Shown piece after piece: positions 3,673 through 56,853 of a DNA stretch of 64,000 bases. The notes beneath the pieces are model-generated. The model was not told where the DNA came from. It saw only the letters and a list, made by a program, of their open reading frames with translations, and searched no databases. Numbering within the stretch: the stretch's first letter is position 1; every line of letters begins with the position of its first letter. The position numbers were made by a program, and so were the translations under genes. This DNA is from Candidatus Doudnabacteria bacterium (lineage in GTDB: Bacteria > Patescibacteriota > Doudnabacteria > UBA920), in NCBI GenBank assembly GCA_963768175.1, contig CAVYGQ010000001.1:840717-904716 (forward strand), written 5' to 3'.

Positions 3673-4458
3673 TTATTTAAATGACACTAATACCGTAAAT
3701 TCTCCTTTAATGGAAGGTTTTTCTTTTAAAACATCAGAAACCTGCATCGGCGTACCGCGGATAAACTCTTCGTGCATTTTGGTGATTTCGCGGGCAATGA
3801 CGATTTGCGATGACGGAAAGGCATTGGTAATATAGTTTAAGGTTTTTAAAATCCGTTCCGGGGATTCATAAAAAATTGCTGTGGCTTCGGCATCGGCCGC
3901 GCTCTGCAGCGCCGAAACGGTTTTTGCCGCGGTTTTTTGTAAAAAACCCAAAAACATAAATTTATCGGTCGGCAAACCGGAGGCTGAAAGCGCGGCAATG
4001 GCGGCATTGGCTCCCGGGATCGGGACAACGGCCACATTTTCTTTTATGCACTCGCGCACCAAGCGAAAACCAGGATCGGAAATCCCGGGTGTGCCCGCAT
4101 CGGTAATTAAACAGCCGTCTTGTTTGGCCAGCCGGCGCGCCAGCTCTTTTACAATTTGTTGTTCGTTAAATTCCGCGAACTGAATAATTGGTTTCGCTGA
4201 AATTGCGAGGAGTGCATCCCGCCCCGACTCGCCGTCTTCGGCGAGGCGGGCCGACGAAGCAATCCCGTCTTTGTTTGAGATTGCCGCGCCCTCAGATGCA
4301 TTCGGGCTCGCAATTTCTAGACGTTCAATGTATTGCAGCAGCCTCCTGCTATATCCTGGATTTTCCGCAATAACAAAACTGCACGATTTTAAAGTTTCAA
4401 TCGCGCGCAGGGTTATGTCCCCCAGATTTCCTATTGGAGTCGCAACGATATACAACAT
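3673..4458 (-). CDS. rsmI: 16S rRNA (cytidine1402-2'-O)-methyltransferase RsmI, carrying an in-frame palindromic insert
   Basis: MLYIVATPIGNLGDITLRAIETLK and TDAGTPGISDPG motifs. Extra segment ASPNASEGAAISNKDGIASSARLAEDGESGRDALLAIS is encoded by a palindromic element at 4199-4317. Confidence 0.85.
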   Translation of the reverse strand: MLYIVATPIGNLGDITLRAIETLKSCSFVIAENPGYSRRLLQYIERLEIASPNASEGAAISNKDGIASSARLAEDGESGRDALLAISAKPIIQFAEFNEQQIVKELARRLAKQDGCLITDAGTPGISDPGFRLVRECIKENVAVVPIPGANAAIAALSASGLPTDKFMFLGFLQKTAAKTVSALQSAADAEATAIFYESPERILKTLNYITNAFPSSQIVIAREITKMHEEFIRGTPMQVSDVLKEKPSIKGEFTVLVSFK

Positions 4459-4487
4459 TAGAATTTTAAATTTAAAATTTTATATCC

Positions 4488-4766
4488 CTACCAGTTTTTA
4501 TCCGGCGCTTCCAAACCAAAAGCCGCTTCTATAAAATCGTATTCCGCCTTAAGCTTGTCGCGGTATTCTTCCAGTTCGTTTTTTTGCTCGCCTTCGGCCT
4601 CGTACCATTCGTCATAGGAATTTTTTAATTCGTCATCAATCTCCTGCAGTCTCGCGTAGGCTTCGGCTTCTCCCTGCGGGCCCTGCTCCGCCCATTCCTC
4701 GTAGCTCATGCCGAGCGTCTTTTTGTATTTATCATCGTATAGGCTTTGTATGTCTTCTTGGTCCAT
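4488..4766 (-). CDS. Small acidic hypothetical protein (92 aa)
   Basis: Only the ORF and its Glu/Asp-rich helical-looking sequence. No recognisable family. Confidence 0.45.
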   Translation of the reverse strand: MDQEDIQSLYDDKYKKTLGMSYEEWAEQGPQGEAEAYARLQEIDDELKNSYDEWYEAEGEQKNELEEYRDKLKAEYDFIEAAFGLEAPDKNW

Positions 4767-4930
4767 AGAAAGTTATATGATACGGATATACGGATTAAAT
4801 ACTGATGATACGGATAATACAGATATCCATCAAGACGTTGCCTGACAGAATCCGTATTATCAGTTTCATCCGCATGTATCAGTATATCAGTATCTCCAAT
4901 TAGTTATTATCTCTACCTATTTTACTCTAA

Positions 4931-4996
4931 ATCTCCAAAAAAGAAAAACCCTCTATGTATTGCCAAGGCCGTCGGGCCTGTTTGGCAATAGAGGGT
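4931..4996 (-). terminator. Rho-independent terminator (minus strand)
   Basis: On the minus strand a long imperfect hairpin CCCTCTATTGCCAAAC..GTTGGCAATACATAGAGGG is followed by TTTTTCTTTTTT. Confidence 0.6.
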
Positions 4997-5212
4997 CTTT
5001 CCGAAAAGTCAAAAGAAGCTTTTTGTAAGCCGAAAGATTTACCTTGCGGCCCATCGCCTTATAAATAAAGGCGATATACATCCTGACGAATCAGGATTGG
5101 TTAAAAAACTTTTAGTTGTTTTTTATTTTGGTTTCTTCTGATGAAGAACTAACTTTTCTATACTAAGTATAGCAAATTTTTAGGCAGTTGTCTAGGGCCC
5201 TGACCCGGCATT

Positions 5213-6199
5213 TTATAGCCTGCTAACTATTTTTGCCACGTTTCCATACATAATGCCGTAAATTTCATCATCCGTTAGTCCTGCTATTTCCGAGAGCTGT
5301 TCCGCAATAACCGACAGTTTTCCAATCTCATCAAACTCTTCAAAGAGATGTTGGGCGTCAAGCCCGCCGAAATCGGTCCCGATTGCCGAATATTCTGTTG
5401 AACCGGTTATATCACCGGCTTGTTTGTATGTTTCTATATAATTTTTGAAAGTTGGGAAAAAAGGATTTGCTGGCGTGAACCCGACCACTCCGCCGCGCTT
5501 GGCGATTTCTTTAAGTAATTCGGGAGTGATTAACCGCTGTTTTTCCGAACCCAGGCCGGTGTGGGTGGTGACAATTTTATTATAGTTTCGTACGCGCTCC
5601 AAAATATCGGCAGTAGTTTTGTGGTTGGCATGGGCGGTGTCTATTATCATTTTCAGCTCAACAAGCCGGTCAATTACTTTTTTTCCAAGGTCGGTCAAGC
5701 CCCTGTTTGGATCGCCTGACGAACCTCCGCCAAGCAGGTTGTCGTGGGAGTAGATTGGCCCAACTGACCTGACGCCGCGCGCATACAATTCGTCAGCTAT
5801 ATCGGGCGCAGTAACAATATCCCCGCCTTCTAAATGCAGGATGATTTGTTCTTGGCTGTAAGGCTGATTTTGCAAGCGTAAGTCTTGCGGTCGTGTAAGT
5901 ACTTTAAAGTCTTCGGTTGATTGGTAGTAATCGATCAACCTATTATATTCGTTGCGCACGCCTGCCAATACAACTTCATTTCCGGTTAAGGCGGCTTGTT
6001 TTATCTCCGTATTTGCCCGGCGGTAGATGGTGGCAAAATGCAAGTCTAGCAGTCTTAAGCCTTCGCGCGGCAATTGTTTGCCTCGTTCTTTGGCATGGGC
6101 AAGTTCGGGGTTGTTTAAAATTTGGCACAGCCAGGGATTGAGCCGGTCTTGGTGGAAATCCGCAGCGCGAAAATTTTTACCTTCCTTGGTGTTTAACAT
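5213..6199 (-). CDS. Membrane-dipeptidase family (peptidase M19-like) protein
   Basis: 328 aa. HLEGGD, VRSVGPIYSHDN, IDTAHANH and GTDFGG resemble M19 metal-ligand and signature motifs. Recognised by eye. Confidence 0.7.
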   Translation of the reverse strand: MLNTKEGKNFRAADFHQDRLNPWLCQILNNPELAHAKERGKQLPREGLRLLDLHFATIYRRANTEIKQAALTGNEVVLAGVRNEYNRLIDYYQSTEDFKVLTRPQDLRLQNQPYSQEQIILHLEGGDIVTAPDIADELYARGVRSVGPIYSHDNLLGGGSSGDPNRGLTDLGKKVIDRLVELKMIIDTAHANHKTTADILERVRNYNKIVTTHTGLGSEKQRLITPELLKEIAKRGGVVGFTPANPFFPTFKNYIETYKQAGDITGSTEYSAIGTDFGGLDAQHLFEEFDEIGKLSVIAEQLSEIAGLTDDEIYGIMYGNVAKIVSRL

Positions 6200-6202
6200 A
6201 AG

Positions 6203-7141
6203 CTATTTGCGGTTAAGGGATCTATAGAAACCTAAAAATAGATTATTTAAATTTTGGCCTTGGAATTTGGCGCTGGCAGTCGCCACGCTTGCCGCGCTAA
6301 AACCCGGGTGTACATCTACTTCTATGAGAAAAAGCTTGTTGCCTTTAATTAGAATATTGGATTGGGAAAAAGTGCGGCAACCAAGCGCTTGGTGGGCGAT
6401 TTTGCTAATCTGTTTGACTTTTTTGATAATTTTGGGATTTAAGTGTGCCGGGAATTCTTTTAAAATCGCAGCCTTTCCATCTTTGATTTTTTTGGAAAGT
6501 AGGTCGCCGAGGACGCCGACCGGATCAAAAATTTTTGGTTCCCGGTTTCCAACAACAAGGCATGTTATTTCATAAGTCTTATTTATGTACTGTTCGGCAA
6601 TCATAGCCGAAACAGTGCCAATGTGCTTGTTGACTATTTTAATGCAGTTTTTTTGGCTTTTTGCAATAAACAATCCTCGGCTGTCAGTGCCGGCAACGTC
6701 TTTAATAATACATGGATAACCAATTCTGCTGACAGCTTTTAGTATAGTAGCCCTGGAATTTGTCCATAAGACTTTATCAATAAAAATGTCTTTTGCTACA
6801 GGTAAATGGCATTGCCGGAAAAAGGTTTTGGATAAAAATTTATTGGTTCCCAGAAAGGTTGCCAACGGCCCGGAGCCAAAGTACGGGATATTATAAAGTT
6901 CCAAAAAAGATTCTATGTCCGCTTCATTGCCCCGGCCATAAGCATTTTTTAAGACCACGCCGACTTGTTTGCGTTTAAAATCCTTTAATAATTCATCTGC
7001 CCCGGTGCGGCCGAAGTCATAAGCCTTAATCCGGAAATTTTTTAACTCGCGCTTCAAATCCAAAAGCTGTCTTTGATTTGCTTGAGCTTGCCCGGGATTG
7101 CCGTAAATAACGACGCCTAATTTTATAAGTTTGTTTTTCAT
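6203..7141 (-). CDS. D-alanine--D-alanine ligase-like ATP-grasp protein (second, divergent paralog)
   Basis: 312 aa. AYGRGNEADIESFLELYNIPYFGSG matches the Ddl pattern HG..GEDG..Q..LE...PY.GS. ATP-grasp core YPCIIKDVAGTDSRGLFIA ... FLIEVDVHPGF. A canonical ddl is at 55654-56853. Confidence 0.7.
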   Translation of the reverse strand: MKNKLIKLGVVIYGNPGQAQANQRQLLDLKRELKNFRIKAYDFGRTGADELLKDFKRKQVGVVLKNAYGRGNEADIESFLELYNIPYFGSGPLATFLGTNKFLSKTFFRQCHLPVAKDIFIDKVLWTNSRATILKAVSRIGYPCIIKDVAGTDSRGLFIAKSQKNCIKIVNKHIGTVSAMIAEQYINKTYEITCLVVGNREPKIFDPVGVLGDLLSKKIKDGKAAILKEFPAHLNPKIIKKVKQISKIAHQALGCRTFSQSNILIKGNKLFLIEVDVHPGFSAASVATASAKFQGQNLNNLFLGFYRSLNRK

Positions 7142-8601
7142 AAATTGTTAAAGGTAATGCTGGCTAAATCGTTGAAATTTATGGTTTTCTCGAGTTTTTT
7201 TGCGGGCGGGATATATTTGGACGAGATATAGTCGTAAATATCGGCGGCGCCGGTTTTAAAGAAGTCGCCATATTTCATACTCACCGCCGCTTCAAGATAC
7301 TTTGGACTTAAAGGCCCGTCACAAAATATATCATGCGCGTATAAAGCCTTAAGCTGTCCGTCAAAGCGCCTGAAAAAAAGCGCCATACCGGCAACCAGCC
7401 CGGAGGTGTCAATGTTTTTAATAAGCGGGATTTCTTCCATAAAGGCGGAATGTTCAAGCGTTTTTAGCCATGCATTTTTAAACAGGCTTAAATAAATTGC
7501 GGACCCGTAGCCGGTTAGCGGACGCACGCCGGAGTAAAAATTTAACATTGAAAAAATCGAAAACAGGCTCGGGTAAATTTCTTTTTCCGCTAGCTTCTCC
7601 ATTATAGAACCCTTGTCCATATGGATTTTAAGATGTTCAAATCTGCTGTCGGCGGGAATCAGATATTCTCCTTGAAGGTACATGCGTAAAGAACGAGGCT
7701 GCCCGGGGTACTTTCTCCAGAAAAAGTGGGTGCCCTTTCCTTCTCTTTCCCGCCAGGTGATTATAATTCCTCGAAAGTTTTCCAGTATTTGATCCCGGAA
7801 AGGCTTATCAAAATAAGCGGCGGTTATAAAATTGTCTTCTTTTAACAGTTCAAGCAGACATTGGGTAGTAAGTTCTTCCTGGGTTATATAGAGCAAGTCC
7901 GGCAAAGTGGGGCGGGAGGCCTCGGGAAACAACAGTGGCCAGGTTTCTTTCACAATGACGGTAATTTGGTCGGCGTAGTCTTTGCATCTGTCAAAATTGA
8001 TTGATGAAATAAAGGTGTTAAAATCTTGTAAGAACTTTTGTTCTCCTTTAGTGAATTCATGCCATTGGTGGCTGATTTTAAGTCTGGCGACAAAATCAAA
8101 ATCTCTTTTTGTAATATAATAAGAGCAATGTTCCCGTTCGGCTACGCTAAAAAGGGGAACGTGCTTTCCATGCAGACAAAAGCCGCTTTTCCCGAAATAA
8201 TTATTGGGGGGCACATCGCCGCTGGAGACGACGATGGTGGCGTCCGCTTTTTCCTTTTGGAAAAATTTATTGACGCTGCTTATAACGTTGGCAGACAATA
8301 AAAACGGGTGGTTTAGTATCTGGTGATGGTCGGCAATATTGAAAGCAAGGGAATTTGCGAAGTTAATTTTTAATTTTTCTTTTGCATTGCCGCCGAACAA
8401 CCCTTCAAATTTACGGGTGATTTTATTTTTTAGCAGCTCCTGCCGTTTAAGGTGTAGAGCCGGAGTTTTAAAATTATATAGCCCGTCCGAAAACTCCCTG
8501 ATGCTTAATGGCATTTCAAAATATTCCCGGTAAAGCGGCGCATAACGGGTAATTTGGGAGATTATTTGGTCGCGCTCTTTTAAAATTTTAGCTATTTCCA
8601 T
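7138..8601 (-). CDS. Hypothetical protein, 487 aa, no family recognised
   Basis: Long uninterrupted ORF. Its stop overlaps the start of the ATP-grasp gene by 4 nt (ATGA), implying translational coupling. Confidence 0.7.
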   Translation of the reverse strand: MEIAKILKERDQIISQITRYAPLYREYFEMPLSIREFSDGLYNFKTPALHLKRQELLKNKITRKFEGLFGGNAKEKLKINFANSLAFNIADHHQILNHPFLLSANVISSVNKFFQKEKADATIVVSSGDVPPNNYFGKSGFCLHGKHVPLFSVAEREHCSYYITKRDFDFVARLKISHQWHEFTKGEQKFLQDFNTFISSINFDRCKDYADQITVIVKETWPLLFPEASRPTLPDLLYITQEELTTQCLLELLKEDNFITAAYFDKPFRDQILENFRGIIITWREREGKGTHFFWRKYPGQPRSLRMYLQGEYLIPADSRFEHLKIHMDKGSIMEKLAEKEIYPSLFSIFSMLNFYSGVRPLTGYGSAIYLSLFKNAWLKTLEHSAFMEEIPLIKNIDTSGLVAGMALFFRRFDGQLKALYAHDIFCDGPLSPKYLEAAVSMKYGDFFKTGAADIYDYISSKYIPPAKKLEKTINFNDLASITFNNL

Positions 8602-8681
8602 AGGTATTTAAACTTTACTCCAATTCAAAAAATCCCGCCAGAATACGGTAAAATGCCAAAATTGTGTTTTAAAGTAATATT

Positions 8682-9434
8682 TTATTTTGTTTCCGCCTTA
8701 TCCCACATATACCAAAACCATTTACGATAGCTGTCGGCCAAATCCTTACTGTGCAAAATAAAGAATACAACATTATCAGAAAGCCTAAATAGTTCCAGGC
8801 CGGTGTAGGTAACTACATAGTCGCCAAAGACATGAAAAATGGAATTTGTGGAATATTCTTTTGGCAGAAAACGATATTTTAAAAGTCCCGGCCAGGTTTT
8901 GGCAAAATCTGGCGCCTGGGTTTTGATTTCATGATCAAATAATTGGTGAAATTTAATTTTTTTCCTGGCGGCTTCTTTAAAAAACGCCTGCCTGCTGGCT
9001 TCCAGTTTCGGTTCAAACCAGCCGCCTTTGGCCCCTACAACAAAATTTTCCTCACCAACGCGCAAAACATCCCGCCAAAGATTTTTTTGCCCTTCCAAGC
9101 CCCGATAAATATAGGCTTCTTCCGGGGCAATGCGACGGGTGAATTTCTTTTTTAAATCAGGAAGTATTTTTCCTAGGCTGGTTTGTTTTTCCGCCAGTAA
9201 TTCCGTCAGCTTGTCTGGGTCAACTGCATTGTAGAGATTTTCCGAAGATGAAAAAATCTCAAAGACTAAGCCTTTGTCTATAAGCCGGGCAATGGCATCA
9301 TAGGCATTGCGGCGGTGAATTTTGGCACTAACAGCTATCTTGCTAATACCCGCTTCCCCTGTTTCCACAAGGGATTCGTAAATTTTGGCTTCATTTGGCG
9401 AAAGCCCTAAGCTTAGGAATAAATCTTGGTTCAT
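8682..9434 (-). CDS. TrmB-like winged-HTH transcriptional regulator (paralog 1)
   Basis: 250 aa. N-terminus LGLSPNEAKIYESLVETGEAGISKIAVSAKIHRRNAYDAIARLIDKGLV is typical of the TrmB HTH. Confidence 0.75.
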   Translation of the reverse strand: MNQDLFLSLGLSPNEAKIYESLVETGEAGISKIAVSAKIHRRNAYDAIARLIDKGLVFEIFSSSENLYNAVDPDKLTELLAEKQTSLGKILPDLKKKFTRRIAPEEAYIYRGLEGQKNLWRDVLRVGEENFVVGAKGGWFEPKLEASRQAFFKEAARKKIKFHQLFDHEIKTQAPDFAKTWPGLLKYRFLPKEYSTNSIFHVFGDYVVTYTGLELFRLSDNVVFFILHSKDLADSYRKWFWYMWDKAETK

Positions 9435-9570
9435 ATAATGTGGTGATGATTGCTACCATGTGGCGCTATTGGCCACTCAATATAGATAATATATGCTTAT
9501 CTGTCAACCGTCAACCCCGCCGCTCGCGAGCGGCGGGTCAAGAAACGGCTCTGATAGAAGGAGGAATACA

Positions 9571-9894
9571 ATGCTTGATCAAGAGTTGAAGAGTTCTGCG
9601 ATTGCCCAAAACCCTCTCTTGGAACCGATGCTCGGGCGGAGTTCGTATACCTGCACGATTTTCGTGATTGATCTCCTTGGGGGGAAATCGGATAACTTTA
9701 GGATTTCAGACGAAGTTCTGGAGCAAATTCGAAAGAGGGTGGAGGGGGCGGAGGATGCGACCTACTACATCATCCACTTCATCCCCAGAGACTTTGAAGT
9801 TAGTAGTCTTGAGGACTTGCCTGAGTCCGAGAAAAAGAAGGTTCGCGAAGCGCTTAACCAAGCACCCTTTCCTGTTTGTATCGTTTGGGTTTAG
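9571..9894 (+). CDS. Hypothetical protein (107 aa), GC-rich islet A
   Basis: ATG at 9571 is preceded by GAAGGAGG (9557-9564). The track ORF 9493-9894 is the same frame with a longer start. No family recognised. Confidence 0.55.
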   Translation: MLDQELKSSAIAQNPLLEPMLGRSSYTCTIFVIDLLGGKSDNFRISDEVLEQIRKRVEGAEDATYYIIHFIPRDFEVSSLEDLPESEKKKVREALNQAPFPVCIVWV

Positions 9895-9967
9895 GCTAAC
9901 TATCGTGTGAGGTCGCTAGTACGAGCGAAGCTTGGGCGAGCTAGTGGGAGATTAAGAAAGGGGTAAT

Positions 9968-10552
9968 ATGAAAGCGGTACTGTTTTTGGCCATTTGTCTC
10001 ACCATCCCCGCTTCGGCCCAGGACTGGCAGACGCGGGACAGCCTGCACGTGCAGGCGGACGTCAGCAAAAATTGGTTCGTCTCCGGCTGGTCGGTGACCA
10101 ACCTGCGGACCGAAACCCCCAACAACACCAACCTGTTCGCAGGCGCAGGCTACCGCGGCAAAAACTGGTGGCTGGAGGCCATAGTACAGCACCAGTGGAA
10201 CACTAAGGCTAACCAGTGGATGCTGGACTTCCGGTTCAACAAGCAGACCGAACGGTGGCGCTTGTATGCCGAGGTCTCGCCTTTTCTGATCAAGAAGGCC
10301 TTCTACGAGTACGTTATTGTAGAACGGCGGACTTGGAAAGGCTTCTCGTTCGGCGCGGAGACCGAGAACACGCACCAGATTGGGCCGGACATGATCGCAA
10401 TAGGCCCTAGGGTTAGTCGCAAGCTCGGCCGGTTTGCTGGCTTTGATGCATCGGCCGCTATTGCGGTTCGGCTTAGCCCTGTCGGTGGGCATACTGAACC
10501 GCGGTTGTCCCTGACGTTCAACCGCCGGCTTTATTTGAGAGACCGCAAGTAG
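9968..10552 (+). CDS. Secreted beta-rich (outer-membrane beta-barrel-like) hypothetical protein, GC-rich islet A
   Basis: 194 aa. Signal peptide MKAVLFLAICLTIPASA-QD. Alternating aromatic/polar strands (WFVSGWSVTNL, WWLEAIVQHQW, WMLDFRF, RLSLTFN). SD AAAGGGG lies upstream. The overlapping minus ORF 9941-10492 is judged a high-GC artefact. Confidence 0.6.
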   Translation: MKAVLFLAICLTIPASAQDWQTRDSLHVQADVSKNWFVSGWSVTNLRTETPNNTNLFAGAGYRGKNWWLEAIVQHQWNTKANQWMLDFRFNKQTERWRLYAEVSPFLIKKAFYEYVIVERRTWKGFSFGAETENTHQIGPDMIAIGPRVSRKLGRFAGFDASAAIAVRLSPVGGHTEPRLSLTFNRRLYLRDRK

Positions 10553-10572
10553 CGCGCGGTCTCTCTTTTTTA
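10537..10572 (+). terminator. Rho-independent terminator
   Basis: GAGAGACCGC aagtagcgc GCGGTCTCTC followed by TTTTTT. Confidence 0.7.
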
Positions 10573-10622
10573 TTTGTTTTTATGCTATAATAAGCAGTAT
10601 ATTATTAAAACAAAAAATTACT

Positions 10623-11357
10623 ATGCAAGATAAGTTTGGCGGAAAAGAACCAAAGTATTACGATATTTTTACTGGTTTGTTTGTGGCAATATTGCTGATT
10701 TCAGAAATTACCTCTACAAAAATTGTGTCTTTGGGGTTTATCCAAACAGCAGGCGCCGCGGTGCTGTTCCCTATCTCTTACATTTTTAGCGATATTTTAA
10801 CCGAAGTTTACGGCTACGCCAGAGCCAGGCGCGTCATGTGGATCGGCTTTGCGTCTTTGGTATTGCTTTCAGCAATCTTAATTATTGTCCAGTATCTGCC
10901 GCCGGCGCCCTCCTGGCACAACCAGGCCGCTTACGACGTGATTTTGGGTGTTGTGCCCAGAATTTCCTTTGCCAGCGTGATAGCTTATTGGGCCGGCGGT
11001 TTTGCCAACGATTTAGTCTTGGCCAAAATGAAGCTTTTGACCAAGGGCAAATATTTGTGGACGCGCACCGTGGGCTCCACCGTGGTTGGCCAGGCCGTGG
11101 ACACTTTTTTGTTCCTTAGCATCGCGTTTTATGGTACCTTGCCCAACGCGGTTATTTTACAAATTATCTTCAGCTTTTATTTGTTTAAGTGCGGTTATGA
11201 AGTCGTAGCCACCCCGATTACTTATTTTGTGGTCAATAAATTAAAAAAGGCCGAAGGCCTGGATGTGTTTGATTACCATACCAATTTCAACCCTTTCAAG
11301 TTCAAGGTTGAAAATTCGGTAGACCAAGGGGCATCCTTGGACCCGGAACAATCTTAG
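10623..11357 (+). CDS. yhhQ: Queuosine-precursor transporter (YhhQ/VUT, DUF165 family)
   Basis: 244 aa multi-TM protein. FPISYIFSDILTEVYGYARARRVMW is the conserved family motif. Confidence 0.8.
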   Translation: MQDKFGGKEPKYYDIFTGLFVAILLISEITSTKIVSLGFIQTAGAAVLFPISYIFSDILTEVYGYARARRVMWIGFASLVLLSAILIIVQYLPPAPSWHNQAAYDVILGVVPRISFASVIAYWAGGFANDLVLAKMKLLTKGKYLWTRTVGSTVVGQAVDTFLFLSIAFYGTLPNAVILQIIFSFYLFKCGYEVVATPITYFVVNKLKKAEGLDVFDYHTNFNPFKFKVENSVDQGASLDPEQS

Positions 11358-52819: not shown

Positions 52820-54403
52820 ATGGACTTGTTTGTTCCAAAATTTATCCAATACCAATTATACCTGCTCCAGCTGGAAAATTATGAGCTGGGAAGGTATTGG
52901 AAATTGCTTATAAAAAAGGGAGTTTTCCCTAAAAAAAGCCAACCTTTGCGCAAAGAGCTGGTCTGGACCGCTAAAGCTCGGGCGTTAATGCTTATGGCTG
53001 TGGCCCTGCATGGTTTGGTGGTCGTTTTGGTTGGGCTTATGGTTTTAACTTTAAAGCCGGGCATAGATAACTTTTTTACCACAATAATTTTGGCGGTATT
53101 AATTTTGTTGCCGTTTTATTTTGTTTTTTTCAGTCTGGCTTTGTTAATCCTTAAGCCTTTGGACACTCTGGTAAAACAAAGCCTTGTGGCTAAAGCCAAA
53201 ACCAAGCTGGCTGGATTGCCTGATGTCAAGATAATCGGCGTTGCCGGCAGTTACGGCAAAACTACAATGAAGGAAGTGTTGAGGGCAGTGCTAAGTGCTA
53301 AGTTCAAAGTGCTAAGTACGCCGGAGAGCATAAACACGCCGGTGGGGATTGCCAGATGGATTATAAATAAAATAACGGACGAAACCCAAATTCTGATTGT
53401 AGAAATGGGGGAGCATTATGAGAAAGACGTTAAAGAAATTTGCGATATAGCAAAACCCGACATCGCGGTGGTTACCGGCATTAACGAATCCCACTTGGAG
53501 CGGATGAAAAAAATGGATACGGTTATTGCCACAATTTTTGAAATCGTGAGTAACGCCCAGCCCGGCGCGGCTATTGTGCTAAACGGCGATGATCGCAGGG
53601 TTATGGAGAATTATAAAAAATTTGTCTGGCCAGACCATCGGCTGGAATTTTTTACAAAAAATCCCGGCAGTGAAAAGTGTAAAGTGAAAAGTGCAAAGTT
53701 TAACACAGACAAGCTGTGTTGGAATTTAGAGATTGATGATCTTGGCTCGGTAGAACTGGATTTACTTGGGGAATACGCGTTGGGCGACGTTGACGCGGCC
53801 GTGAAAATTGCCAAAAGTTTGGGTATGAGCAATGAGCAAATTATCGCGGGGATCAAAAATATCAAGCCCGTGGAGCACAGGCTCCAGCCGATAAAGTCTG
53901 CCACGAATGTTTTGGTAATAGACGACAGTTACAACGGCAATTCCGACGGAGTAGTGGAAGCCATAAAAGTTTTGTCGCGCTTTTCCGCCAAAGGCGGATC
54001 CGCCTCCGGCGGAGAAGGCCGCCGGAAGATTTATATCACTCCCGGGCTGGTGGAAATAGGCAAAAGTTCCGCCGATATTCATCGCAGTATTGGCAAACAG
54101 CTGGCGGACGTTGCGGATGTGGTTATTTTGATAAAAAATAGCGCGACGGGGTTTATTGAAGAGGGAATCCTCTTAGGGCGTCATTCTGACCCTGAGCGGA
54201 GCGAAGGGGAAGAATCTCAAACTAAGGATAAAGAGATCCTTCGTCCCTCGGATGCACTCGGGGCTCAGGATGACGCCGCTGGTAAGAGACCAAGAATTAT
54301 CTGGTTTAATTCCGCCTTGGAAGCGTACGCGGGGCTAAAAGACATTTTAAAACCCGGGGATGTAATTTTGTTTCAGAACGATTGGGGAGACCAGTATTTG
54401 TAA
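52820..54403 (+). CDS. murF: Mur ligase, MurF-like (UDP-MurNAc-tripeptide--D-Ala-D-Ala ligase) with N-terminal membrane segment and in-frame repeat inserts
   Basis: 527 aa. GVAGSYGKTTMKE P-loop and VIDDSYNGN. The first 115 aa or so contain 3 hydrophobic helices. Inserts at 53985-54012 (AKGGSASGG) and 54178-54277 (RPE-like). Confidence 0.8.
   Translation: MDLFVPKFIQYQLYLLQLENYELGRYWKLLIKKGVFPKKSQPLRKELVWTAKARALMLMAVALHGLVVVLVGLMVLTLKPGIDNFFTTIILAVLILLPFYFVFFSLALLILKPLDTLVKQSLVAKAKTKLAGLPDVKIIGVAGSYGKTTMKEVLRAVLSAKFKVLSTPESINTPVGIARWIINKITDETQILIVEMGEHYEKDVKEICDIAKPDIAVVTGINESHLERMKKMDTVIATIFEIVSNAQPGAAIVLNGDDRRVMENYKKFVWPDHRLEFFTKNPGSEKCKVKSAKFNTDKLCWNLEIDDLGSVELDLLGEYALGDVDAAVKIAKSLGMSNEQIIAGIKNIKPVEHRLQPIKSATNVLVIDDSYNGNSDGVVEAIKVLSRFSAKGGSASGGEGRRKIYITPGLVEIGKSSADIHRSIGKQLADVADVVILIKNSATGFIEEGILLGRHSDPERSEGEESQTKDKEILRPSDALGAQDDAAGKRPRIIWFNSALEAYAGLKDILKPGDVILFQNDWGDQYL
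54178..54277. repeat. Palindromic MITE/RPE-like element, in-frame inside murF (copy 3)
   Basis: GGCGTCATTCTGACCCTGAGCGGAGCGAAGGGGAAGAATCTCAAAC...AGAGATCCTTCGTCCCTCGGATGCACTCGGGGCTCAGGATGACGCC. Translated as GRHSDPERSEGEESQTKDKEILRPSDALGAQDDAA. Confidence 0.8.
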
Positions 54404-54442
54404 TGACAAAAATTAAAAAAATGACATAATTGACAAAAATTC

Positions 54443-55588
54443 ATGGGGACAATCGGAAAAATTTTTAATAAGATAGTATCACCAAAAATTAACTATCAAC
54501 CGCTTATAGAAGTGAGGATTTTTAAAGATGCCTTGCTGCATAATTTACACGTTTTCCAAGAAAAATATCCGAGCCTTGAGTTTGCCCCAGTGATAAAAAG
54601 CAACGCTTACGGACACGGTATGGTACAGGTGGCAAAAATTTTTGACAGCAAACCCAAAGCTTTTTTTATGGTGGACTCATTTTATGAGGCTTTGGTGTTA
54701 AGGCGCGCCGGAATTAAATCTAAAATTTTAATGCTGGGTTTTAACCGGATTGAGCAATTGATTAACCCCAAATTAAAAAATTGTTCCTCGGCGATTATTG
54801 ATTTCTCCACTTTGCAGGAAGTGGTGGCAAAATTAAAAAAGCCGGCGATCTTTCATCTCAAGATTGATACGGGTATGCACCGGCAGGGACTGTGGGGGGA
54901 AGAAGTAAATAAGGCAATTGCGTTAATCAAGTCTAACCCAAACTTTAATTTGGAGGGCTTATGCAGCCATTTGGCGGATGCCGACGGGGCTGGGCAGGAT
55001 TTTACCAAACAGCAGATTAGACTGTGGAATCAAGTCGTGGAAAAATTCAAACAAAACTTTCCCTCCATTAAATATTTCCATTTAGCCAATACCGCCGGGA
55101 CTTTTTATACCAACGAAATTACGGCCAACGTGGCGCGCATCGGCATCGGGCTGTATGGGTTAAATAATTCACAGTTTGAAAAGTTGGACTTAAAACCGGC
55201 TTTGGAAATGGCCTCTATTGTCACTTCCGTAAAAACTATTCCGGCTGGGGAGAAAATCGGTTACAATATAACTTATGAGGCGCCGAAAGAAACAAAAATC
55301 GCCACCGTACCGGCGGGATTCAACGAAGGCGTGGACCGCAGGCTTTCAAATAAAGGATTTTACCAAATTAAGGGGCAAAACTGTCCTTTGCGGGGCAAGG
55401 TGAGCATGAACATAAGCAGCGTGGAAGTAACCAGTGTCCCTGGAGTTAAAGTGGGGGATGAGGTGGTAATTATAAGCCGAAATCCGAGCGATAAAAATTC
55501 GGTGGAAAATATTGCCAAAATGTGCGACACGGTACATTACGAAATTCTGGTTCATATACCTTCTATATTAAGAAGAATAATAGTGTAG
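54443..55588 (+). CDS. alr: Alanine racemase
   Basis: 381 aa. PVIKSNAYGHG carries the PLP lysine, with the typical C-terminal beta domain. Confidence 0.9.
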   Translation: MGTIGKIFNKIVSPKINYQPLIEVRIFKDALLHNLHVFQEKYPSLEFAPVIKSNAYGHGMVQVAKIFDSKPKAFFMVDSFYEALVLRRAGIKSKILMLGFNRIEQLINPKLKNCSSAIIDFSTLQEVVAKLKKPAIFHLKIDTGMHRQGLWGEEVNKAIALIKSNPNFNLEGLCSHLADADGAGQDFTKQQIRLWNQVVEKFKQNFPSIKYFHLANTAGTFYTNEITANVARIGIGLYGLNNSQFEKLDLKPALEMASIVTSVKTIPAGEKIGYNITYEAPKETKIATVPAGFNEGVDRRLSNKGFYQIKGQNCPLRGKVSMNISSVEVTSVPGVKVGDEVVIISRNPSDKNSVENIAKMCDTVHYEILVHIPSILRRIIV

Positions 55589-55653
55589 CGCGCCGATTTA
55601 TCGGCATCCTAAGATAGCCCATAAATGGGCACGCTACAGATGGAAAAAATTTT

Positions 55654-56853
55654 ATGAAAAAAAACATTGGCGTATTTTTTGGCTCGGGCTCTACAGAACA
55701 CGATATTTCGATAATTACGGCCCAGCTGATTATTGCCGGGCTAAAAGGTTTGGAATACCCGGTAACCCCCGTCTATATTACCAAGCAGGGCAAATGGATG
55801 CTCGGGGAAGAGCTGGGGAACTTGAAATTTTTTATTGACCCGAGTAAAAAAGTTGAAGACGAAAAAAAATATTACGAATATTATTTGGATATGCAAGAGT
55901 TGGTGGGGAAGATGGTGTTTAAGCGTAAGGGATTTTTGGGCAAATCTATTGTCATCGATGTGGCTTTTCCGGCCTTACACGGCGCTTTCGGCGAAGACGG
56001 AACCATTCAGGGGGTGTTCGAGATGCTCGGTGTGCCTTACGTGGGCTGCGGCGTGCCGGCCTCGGCCATTGCCATGGACAAGGCTCTGACCAAGATAATT
56101 ATGAAGGACGCGGGCGTGCCGACCACTAAATTTGCTTTTTTCTATAAACAGGATTGGGAAAATAGCAAGCCGCAAATTATAAATCAAATTAATCAGCTCA
56201 AGTGGCCGGTGTTTGTAAAACCGGTACATTTGGGCTCTTCCATCGGCATCGGCAAAGTAAAGGCGGGGGATATTAAAGATTTGGAAAATAAGATTGAAGT
56301 TGCGCTACATTATGACGAAAAAGTTTTGGTGGAAGAAAGCGTGGAAAATTTAATGGATGTGACATGCTGTATAATCGGCAACAACCAGCTGCGCGCCTCG
56401 TTGCTTCAGGAGTCGGTGTTTAGCAGCGAACTGTTTGATTTTGAAAACAAGTATATTTCCGGCGGCGGCAGCCAGACCGGCAAAGCCGTCAATAATTTGA
56501 TTATTCCCGCCAGACTGGACGAGGCCACCACCAAAGCAATTCAGGATTGCGCCATAAAAGTTTATAAAGCTTTGGGCTGTTTTGGCATCGCCAGGGTGGA
56601 TTTTTTATACAACAAGCAAACCAAAGAATTTTTTGCCAATGAAGTTAATCCTTTACCGGGTACGCTTTATCACCATTTGTGGAAAGCCAGCGGTTTGGAA
56701 TTAGGCCAACTTTTGCAGCAGCTGATAAAATTTGCGGAAGAAAAATACGAACAAAAACGCGAAATTACTTTTACCTTTGAATCTAGCGTGTTAAAACAGT
56801 TAAGTAGCGTTAAGTTAAAATCAAAAAAGTTAGATAGTGGTGTTTCATCATAA
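55654..56853 (+). CDS. ddl: D-alanine--D-alanine ligase
   Basis: 399 aa. FPALHGAFGEDGTIQGVFEMLGVPYVGCG, with the ATP-grasp core ..ARVDFLY..EVNPLPG. Confidence 0.9.
   Translation: MKKNIGVFFGSGSTEHDISIITAQLIIAGLKGLEYPVTPVYITKQGKWMLGEELGNLKFFIDPSKKVEDEKKYYEYYLDMQELVGKMVFKRKGFLGKSIVIDVAFPALHGAFGEDGTIQGVFEMLGVPYVGCGVPASAIAMDKALTKIIMKDAGVPTTKFAFFYKQDWENSKPQIINQINQLKWPVFVKPVHLGSSIGIGKVKAGDIKDLENKIEVALHYDEKVLVEESVENLMDVTCCIIGNNQLRASLLQESVFSSELFDFENKYISGGGSQTGKAVNNLIIPARLDEATTKAIQDCAIKVYKALGCFGIARVDFLYNKQTKEFFANEVNPLPGTLYHHLWKASGLELGQLLQQLIKFAEEKYEQKREITFTFESSVLKQLSSVKLKSKKLDSGVSS

Follow-up and report, generated by a model that had tools for sequence, protein, structure and literature searches.

Translationally coupled and co-conserved genes of Patescibacteria encode a protein with a predicted BshC-like fold, a divergent Ddl-fold paralogue and an M19-family metallohydrolase

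The described systems that come closest to the locus reported here each share only part of its content. In VanA/VanX-type pairs the dipeptidase belongs to family M15, whereas the ligase studied here is accompanied by an M19 enzyme, of the amidohydrolase fold, and by a third, BshC-like enzyme, without VanH, VanR or VanS. The BacD, RizA and LysX/ArgX clusters form amide bonds with ATP-grasp enzymes in small-molecule pathways, as we propose for this trio. BshC itself is found in a gene context with BshA and BshB, in contrast to the 487-residue protein that resembles it in fold (hereafter U487), whose partners are the ATP-grasp ligase and the M19 enzyme. The BshC reaction was still without in vitro reconstitution as of a 2018 review (PMC5790435), and for this reason the structural analogy between U487 and BshC transfers little mechanism. 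In the literature we found no BshC-like enzymes outside bacillithiol synthesis, no operon of this kind, and no description of an actinomycete HypE/HypF cluster.

A preliminary description of the window, a 64,000-nucleotide stretch of DNA from a Candidatus Doudnabacteria bacterium, had placed four same-strand genes at this locus, with the U487 and ligase genes overlapping in ATGA and 3 nt separating the ligase gene from that of M19. An ORF check of the window confirmed all four open reading frames on the minus strand, and the coordinates and junctions proved exact. The genes and the putative signals around them are as follows.

9479..9507, minus strand: promoter-like site TTGACA-17-TATATT, a consensus match only, at 11 of 12 positions
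8682..9434, minus strand: TrmB-family winged-helix protein, 250 residues (Pfam TrmB, 5.9e-14)
7138..8601, minus strand: U487, 487 residues, unnamed family with a predicted BshC-like / class I aaRS-like nucleotide-binding fold
6203..7141, minus strand: Ddl-fold ATP-grasp ligase of a distinct clade, 312 residues (Pfam Dala_Dala_lig_C, 5.7e-19)
5213..6199, minus strand: M19-family (renal-dipeptidase-like) metallohydrolase, 328 residues (Pfam Peptidase_M19, 4e-32, 112.1 bits)
4937..4995, minus strand: long GC-rich hairpin with a T-run, terminator-like (sequence reading and folding)

The TrmB-like start codon lies 45 nt downstream of the promoter-like site, which, judged from its motif, is the likely start of a four-gene transcript. 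The TrmB-like and U487 genes are separated by 80 nt, in which a pattern scan found no terminator-like site and in which GGAG precedes the U487 start; the TrmB-like gene is thus probably co-transcribed with the trio, or shares its promoter, in this genome. The hairpin at 4937..4995 is the first strong terminator-like structure 3' of the M19 gene. It is absent from the pattern-scan list, and may serve a separate small transcript beginning near 5160. A riboswitch or other known RNA was considered and rejected, as Rfam gave no match at E ≤0.1 within 4000-10700.

The TrmB assignment rests on PF01978 at residues 8-73 (5.9e-14; 52 bits, cut-off 25.6); no sensor domain was recognised in the C-terminal half, and the NCBIfam TrmB equivalogs scored far below their cut-offs. 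U487 has no TrmB gene ahead of it in any of the other trio loci, and one locus (L017) carries a TrmB gene about 2 kb from a fusion of U487 with an ATP-grasp domain. The TrmB-headed operon of the preliminary description therefore stands for this genome only. We rejected TrmB as a conserved module component; the gene is a local addition.

The remaining three genes keep the order U487-ligase-M19 in a further eight loci of the tiny-celled Patescibacteria, one of which ends inside the ligase gene, so that the comparison of related genomes which the preliminary description had called for bears out their co-conservation. Across the nine loci, which span several lineages, the junctions are tight or overlapping, the flanking genes otherwise differ, and the M19 orthologues are 54-62% identical. 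These data show that the U487, ligase and M19 genes are translationally coupled and co-conserved. The genes are real and not chance open reading frames, since U487 has 108 homologue clusters with a mean column identity of 54%. The coupling is not universal, with exceptions at L005, L009, L010, L014 and L022, and this could be taken to mean that three unrelated genes merely travel together; that explanation is highly improbable, and already disfavoured, given the shared order and junctions amid differing flanks and the existence of a natural fusion between a U487-like protein and an ATP-grasp domain. As a counterpoint to the reading of the trio as a module, coupling is also not obligate: a close U487 orthologue (61% identical) in L005 has a different partner, L009, from a close relative, retains U487 after deletion of the ligase and M19 genes, L022 has the ligase-M19 pair but no U487, and distant relatives of U487 stand by themselves in housekeeping surroundings.

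The predicted fold of the ligase superposes on Ddl and VanA, its closest matches, with 280-293 of 312 residues aligned and the N-terminal domain included. The preliminary description had assigned it the Ddl N-terminal pattern, which is not borne out: Pfam PF01820 (Dala_Dala_lig_N) is detected neither in the window ligase nor in any member of its clade, and the window ligase has Gln and Asn where DdlB has Glu15 and Ser19 of the GGxSxE...S motif, a motif replaced across the clade by (Y/F)Gxxx Q xxx N. The residues that bind the first D-alanine (Glu15/Ser150/Tyr216) fare no better in the comparison with Ddl that the description had proposed. Across 41 clade members they are Gln (one Arg, one His), Asp, and Asp (two Asn), giving E15Q, S150D and Y216D in the window ligase, whereas the canonical Ddl of the window and 14 true Ddl proteins keep the triad. 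Numbering here follows E. coli DdlB, the residue numbering of the reference sequence having been checked. The clade is set apart by a sharp score gap (at least 227 bits, against at most 74 bits for true Ddl), and the window ligase falls well short of the curated cut-offs: it reaches 111.6 bits with the best NCBIfam Ddl model, which requires 243, and 30-65 bits with the NCBIfam Van models, which require 495-775.

Outside the triad, the clade keeps K97, K144, E180, K215, R255, E270 and G276, as well as D257 with one exception, and has Asp at the N272 position. The ligase is thus an extra, divergent paralogue of the Ddl fold, as had been proposed, in which ATP- and Mg-binding residues are kept clade-wide and the first-substrate pocket is rebuilt. 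The two new acidic residues in this pocket suggest a substrate that is not D-alanine and is possibly basic; the clade would then present a clean case of a Ddl scaffold retargeted to another substrate. Several database entries name clade members D-alanine--D-alanine ligase, an annotation that should be dropped. In the window copy, and in none of the clade relatives compared with it, R255 is replaced by Gln and D257 by Asn (Q260 and N262), with loss of the catalytic Arg and of a Mg-ligand Asp, and this enzyme may consequently be weakened or inactive; the ligases of L023 and L024, for example, have the FSR[AS]D motif intact. The change at the catalytic Arg is a further counterpoint to the module reading.

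The M19 protein, correctly recognised in the preliminary description, scores 112.1 bits against a Pfam cut-off of 26 and covers profile positions 29-317 of 319. Nine orthologues share H16-x-D18, E124, H190, H213 and D276 without exception; H16, D18, E124, H190 and H213 (zinc) and D276 (catalytic) were equated with residues of the human enzyme via the literature (PMC9305348). Its PDB matches are weak M19 hits, in which the HxEG, DxxHxN and THxx motifs fall on E124, H190 and H213. By these motifs, the protein keeps every metal-binding element of a binuclear zinc site and the catalytic Asp. No N-terminal signal sequence was found in it.

The preliminary description had likened the ligase and dipeptidase to VanA/VanX and suggested a variant dipeptide or peptide stem. 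In a cell-wall role of this kind the ligase would make an alternative stem dipeptide or depsipeptide, the M19 enzyme would, like VanX, remove the normal or an unwanted dipeptide, and U487 would attach an amino acid to a wall precursor. The nearness of the ligase to Ddl and VanA in fold is consistent with such a role, but its first-substrate triad is replaced in every clade member and all Ddl and Van models score far below their cut-offs. Characterised M19 enzymes (Sco3058, renal dipeptidase) tolerate a D-residue at the C-terminus of their dipeptide substrates, which would suit the scheme; VanX, however, is an M15 enzyme. The ligase-M19 pair of L022 lies directly after MurT/GatD, and in L005 an alanine racemase gene precedes U487 by two genes, yet no trio locus holds a Mur-type ligase, VanH, VanR or VanS, and neither the window region nor the trio loci contain dehydrogenase or two-component genes. 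Furthermore, a standard MurF-like/Alr/Ddl set is already encoded elsewhere in the window, as had been noted, where 52820-56853 holds the canonical Mur ligase, the alanine racemase and a full two-domain Ddl. The pair is also dispensable, because it is deleted in L009 and the window ligase has lost its catalytic Arg. We consider the cell-wall role distinctly unlikely, and the VanA/VanX analogy and the peptide stem are not supported; amide or peptide chemistry stays plausible because of the BshC / class I aaRS fold of U487.

The preliminary description had left U487 unrecognised, and it has no match in Pfam, NCBIfam (E ≤0.1), PADLOC or, by phmmer, the PDB. PADLOC gave no match for any of the three enzymes, and anti-phage defence was rejected. 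The remote-homology search that had been recommended succeeded at the level of fold and failed with sequence profiles: a U487 profile found no BshC at E ≤10, or any other match, among PDB sequences, and hhalign gave 0.9% probability against class I aaRS. A word-indexed homology search with an alignment of distant members gave six hits, all unnamed, and cluster name look-ups yielded a single label, 'hypothetical protein' for a Magasanikbacteria entry, with the proteins of the window left unnamed. The superfamily nevertheless comprises at least 970 clusters at 50% identity and is very widespread in Patescibacteria. U487 therefore represents a very large family without a name or a Pfam model.

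Fold comparison places U487 with BshC and the class I aaRS, the best structural match being BshC (PDB 4wbd), followed by others that include class I LysRS, CysRS, GlnRS and MshC. The BshC match aligns 338 of 487 residues, compared with 253 for LysRS, at 7-12% identity and without a Pfam BshC or profile-level match. U487 is about 50 residues shorter than BshC and has short C-terminal helices, all of at most 12 residues, where BshC has a long coiled coil. About half of U487 aligns with class I LysRS, CysRS and MshC, with no sequence similarity. A conserved motif, D91-H92-H93-Q94, lies just past the first Rossmann strand as DHH(Q/G); neither of the canonical class I aaRS motifs, HIGH and KMSKS, was identified in U487. 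Further conserved motifs are V130-P131-P132-x-N134, D211-Q212, K289-G290-T291-H292-F293-F294-W295 and G364-x-G366-S367. By the Pfam, NCBIfam and PDB sequence searches, U487 belongs to no named family, and fold comparison alone places it. The lack of any sequence-level link to BshC or an aaRS is another counterpoint to the module reading.

The aaRS matches (LysRS, CysRS, GlnRS) raise the alternative that U487 is an aaRS-like housekeeping enzyme that acts on tRNA or another macromolecule, for instance in modified base aminoacylation or non-canonical charging, the ligase and M19 enzyme being no more than common neighbours with a part in amino-acid supply or recycling. The breadth of the superfamily, whose distant members are solitary among housekeeping genes, and the survival of U487 without its partners in L009 fit this role. 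However, fewer residues align to LysRS than to BshC, which is not a tRNA synthetase. The genes of the actinomycete homologues, such as that of the S. clavuligerus cluster (L001), show translational coupling to HypE/HypF-like genes and belong to a secondary-metabolite-like cluster, and the fusions to an ATP-grasp domain and to a region with a racemase-like match point to small-molecule chemistry. We regard a role on macromolecules as unlikely.

The BshC, CysRS and MshC matches could instead indicate that the trio makes or recycles a low-molecular-weight thiol or cysteine conjugate, with U487 adding Cys in the manner of BshC/MshC, the ligase corresponding in action to GshF's Ddl-like glutathione-synthetase domain, and the M19 enzyme serving as a Cys-Gly-type dipeptidase. 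A GCS2-family (glutamate-cysteine-ligase-type) gene stands alongside a U487-like fusion in L018, and U487 genes of actinomycetes are coupled to homologues of HypE/HypF, proteins whose target in hydrogenase maturation is a cysteine thiol. The homologue alignment of U487, on the other hand, shows neither a conserved cysteine nor an evident zinc-thiolate site, and no BshA (GT4) or BshB (deacetylase) type genes occur in the loci examined. This thiol chemistry, which is argued from analogy, is very unlikely.

The best reading is one in which a small-metabolite amide module is favoured over a Van-like cell-wall system, its function being one that we infer. We hold tentatively, and with rather less than even confidence, that the trio works in the cytoplasm of Patescibacteria as a module for forming and hydrolysing amide bonds in a small metabolite derived from amino acids. 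By analogy with BshC and MshC, U487 would join an amino acid, or another carboxylate, to an amine acceptor, in a step that is possibly nucleotide-dependent via the DHH motif. The ATP-grasp ligase would add or prepare a second residue through an acyl-phosphate, and the M19 enzyme would cleave the dipeptide-like bond so formed, whether for turnover, for recycling or as proofreading. As Patescibacteria genomes are tiny, a conserved three-enzyme module likely matters for physiology or host interactions.

U487-like proteins also adjoin LAL-type and GCS2-type ligases and other ATP-grasp-fold enzymes, which, with the biosynthetic-type cluster of actinomycetes, links them to L-amino-acid-ligase and carboxylate-amine-ligase clusters. 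Pur6, the 'unique peptidyl-aminonucleoside synthetase' of puromycin, was rejected as a relative because it is described as gingipain-like. A broader proposal, possible but doubtful, is that the U487 family forms a large branch, so far undescribed, within the class I aaRS / BshC fold and supplies one half of a two-enzyme amide-forming system, completed by a partner of ATP-grasp fold, which would make a small metabolite in Patescibacteria and take part in a HypE/HypF natural-product pathway in actinomycetes. Candidate partners would be the Ddl-derived ligase, the fused RimK-like domain, a LAL-type ligase, and a PPDK_N and swivel-domain pair. If this were true, an absent ATP-grasp-type partner could also explain why BshC had yet to be reconstituted in vitro. 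The recurrent pairing of U487 with ATP-grasp-fold enzymes, fusion included, offers a concrete and testable proposal for the way in which such folds come by an activated substrate.

The four minus-strand open reading frames lie at exactly the coordinates of the preliminary description, and a promoter scan places a strong promoter-like site ahead of them:

9507-9479, minus strand, strong promoter-like site (TTGACA-17-TATATT)
8682-9434, minus strand, TrmB-like protein, 250 aa (Pfam TrmB, 5.9e-14)
7138-8601, minus strand, U487, a protein of an unnamed family with a BshC-like/class I aaRS-like fold, 487 aa (no Pfam match)
6203-7141, minus strand, Ddl-fold ATP-grasp ligase, 312 aa (Pfam Dala_Dala_lig_C, 5.7e-19)
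5213-6199, minus strand, M19 dipeptidase-family protein, 328 aa (Pfam Peptidase_M19, 4e-32)

The junctions also read as had been claimed, with U487 and the ligase overlapping in ATGA and a three-nucleotide gap between the ligase and M19 (TAG-CTT-ATG). The spacer between the TrmB-like gene and U487 is 80 nt long and contains GGAG, and the scan listed no terminator-like sites between any of the four genes. The TrmB-like gene, described as the head of the operon, probably shares its promoter in the window genome but falls outside the conserved unit. A standard Mur-type ligase, an alanine racemase and a second, full two-domain Ddl are located at 52820-56853, and the ATP-grasp gene is thus an extra paralogue, as previously suggested. 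U487, for which no motif or family could be placed, likewise returned no match in searches of Pfam, NCBIfam, PDB sequences and PADLOC. Directly upstream of the promoter, a GC-rich patch (9500-10550; 0.52-0.545 against ~0.40-0.47 around it) holds overlapping ORFs on both strands; one of these, encoding 194 aa on the plus strand (9968-10552), begins with a signal-peptide-like stretch, MKAVLFLAICLTIPASAQ, and matches no Pfam family.

The U487-ligase-M19 trio is co-conserved beyond the window genome. Comparison of gene neighbourhoods finds the same order and strand in loci L006, L008, L011, L012, L013, L023 (Kerfeldbacteria) and L024, with flanking genes that otherwise differ; L007 also carries this order, but the locus is cut off. 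Of the ligase-clade clusters, 27 lie on contigs of at least 3 kb; 17 of these have a contig equal in size to that of a U487 cluster, and three further ones are linked to U487 through the loci. The contigs of L006 and L013 carry the deposited title 'uncultured Gammaproteobacteria'. With 44-62% identity to the window's proteins, their U487, ligase and M19 fall in the same range as those of the Patescibacteria loci, and these contigs may therefore be mis-binned.

The coupling is not absolute. In L009, from a Doudnabacteria relative syntenic with the window, U487 is kept and is accompanied by a 55-aa stub (7466-7630) corresponding to the ligase N-terminus (49% identical over 39 residues) and followed by stop codons; the remainder of the ligase and M19 are missing, an indication that the pair was deleted recently. 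Locus L022 (3548-8090) has a divergent ligase-M19 pair without U487, directly downstream of gyrB-gyrA-MurT-GatD and preceded by a small LEA_5/KGG protein; MurT and GatD function in peptidoglycan iso-glutamate amidation. Its M19 protein is divergent: 42 residues that never vary among the other orthologues are changed in it, one of them the His at window position 152. After U487, L005 (whose U487 is the closest homologue of the window protein, 61% identical), L010 and L014 carry a ~360-aa protein ending in a PEP-utilizer swivel domain, and a PPDK_N ATP-binding protein lies near U487 in L005 and L010. Distant members of the U487 superfamily are often solitary among housekeeping genes. A tRNA-directed housekeeping role for U487 is unlikely in our estimation.

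The ligase belongs to a clade, at present entered in some databases as 'D-alanine-D-alanine ligase', that we regard as retargeted Ddl. The D-Ala pocket is gone, and two new acidic residues in the pocket hint at a basic substrate. In the window protein, codons 258-262 (6356-6370) read FSQSN, against FSR[AS]D in every other member of the clade; Q260 (CAA) and N262 (AAT) replace the counterparts of the catalytic Arg255 and the Mg-ligand Asp257 of DdlB. The VanA/VanX-like or peptide-stem logic first proposed is weak, and we consider a peptidoglycan role for the trio quite improbable: the D-Ala pocket has been lost, the dipeptidase is of another family, the module has no Mur, VanH or VanRS genes alongside it, and a close relative manages without the ligase-M19 pair.

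The M19 protein spans nearly the whole Pfam profile and has no evident signal peptide; solved M19 structures are only distantly similar to it (E ~1e-8, PDB sequence search). Residues H16-x-D18, E124, H190, H213 and D276 are invariant in nine orthologues, and none is lost in the window copy. M19 homologues that lack these metal ligands, PvdM among them, are non-hydrolytic (PMC9305348). That the window protein keeps the ligands is evidence for an active metallohydrolase.

As the best-supported, still tentative, reading, we propose that the trio is a cytoplasmic module that makes and hydrolyses the amide bonds of a small metabolite derived from amino acids. The analysis establishes the gene structure, the folds, the conserved residues and the co-conservation; for the chemistry, we infer that U487 would act as a ligase in the manner of BshC/MshC, the Ddl-derived enzyme as an acyl-phosphate-forming ligase with a substrate other than D-alanine, and M19 as a hydrolase serving turnover or editing. 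That the trio serves a thiol cofactor seems very unlikely. Among the papers searched, none describes the U487 family, BshC-like proteins outside bacillithiol synthesis or the U487-ligase-M19 operon. All three components fall in known fold classes; what the trio adds is an enzyme family that is large and has no name, and a clade of retargeted Ddl enzymes.

Relatives of U487 recur beside other ATP-grasp enzymes. In P0260 (L017, 3311-6139), a U487-like domain is naturally fused to a C-terminal RimK-like ATP-grasp domain; an ornithine/DAP decarboxylase gene adjoins it, and a TrmB gene lies ~2 kb away. Upstream of P0222 (2971-5511) in L018 lie genes for a GCS2 carboxylate-amine ligase and a LAL-type ATP-grasp enzyme; P0222 is U487-like and has an additional region, which carries a precomputed Pfam match to CntK_N (histidine-racemase-type) that our own Pfam scan did not recover. 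P0268 joins a U487-like domain to an N-terminal DUF2332 region. Streptomyces clavuligerus (L001) and Kitasatospora (L003) share a conserved cluster around the U487 homologue (~2.7-11.5 kb of each locus). One side comprises DUF3865, HypE-like (AIRS), full-architecture HypF-like and U487 genes, with U487 translationally coupled to the HypE-like and HypF-like genes; the divergent side comprises isochorismatase, arginase-family, ATP-grasp_4 and MFS transporter genes, which a nitroreductase joins in Kitasatospora. The arrangement has the look of a biosynthetic cluster not yet characterised, and our literature search found no paper on it. PPDK_N is itself an ATP-grasp-fold domain. Taken together, the fusion, the L018 neighbours, the actinomycete ATP-grasp_4 and PPDK_N indicate a recurring pairing of a U487-type protein with an ATP-grasp-fold enzyme.

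A separate promoter-like site (TAGACA-17-TGcTATACT, 5194-5166, minus strand) lies in the spacer that separates the M19 stop from the gene after it. The ~230 nt downstream of this site have a very stable fold (-87.3 kcal/mol, z = -6.5), with the following feature at their end:

4995-4937, minus strand, long hairpin and T-run

We regard 4937-5194 (minus strand) as a candidate small RNA without an assigned family; an Rfam search of this spacer gave no match. At the same position, L009 preserves the promoter and the first ~90 nt at 70% identity, and the counterpart there likewise ends in a hairpin and T-run.
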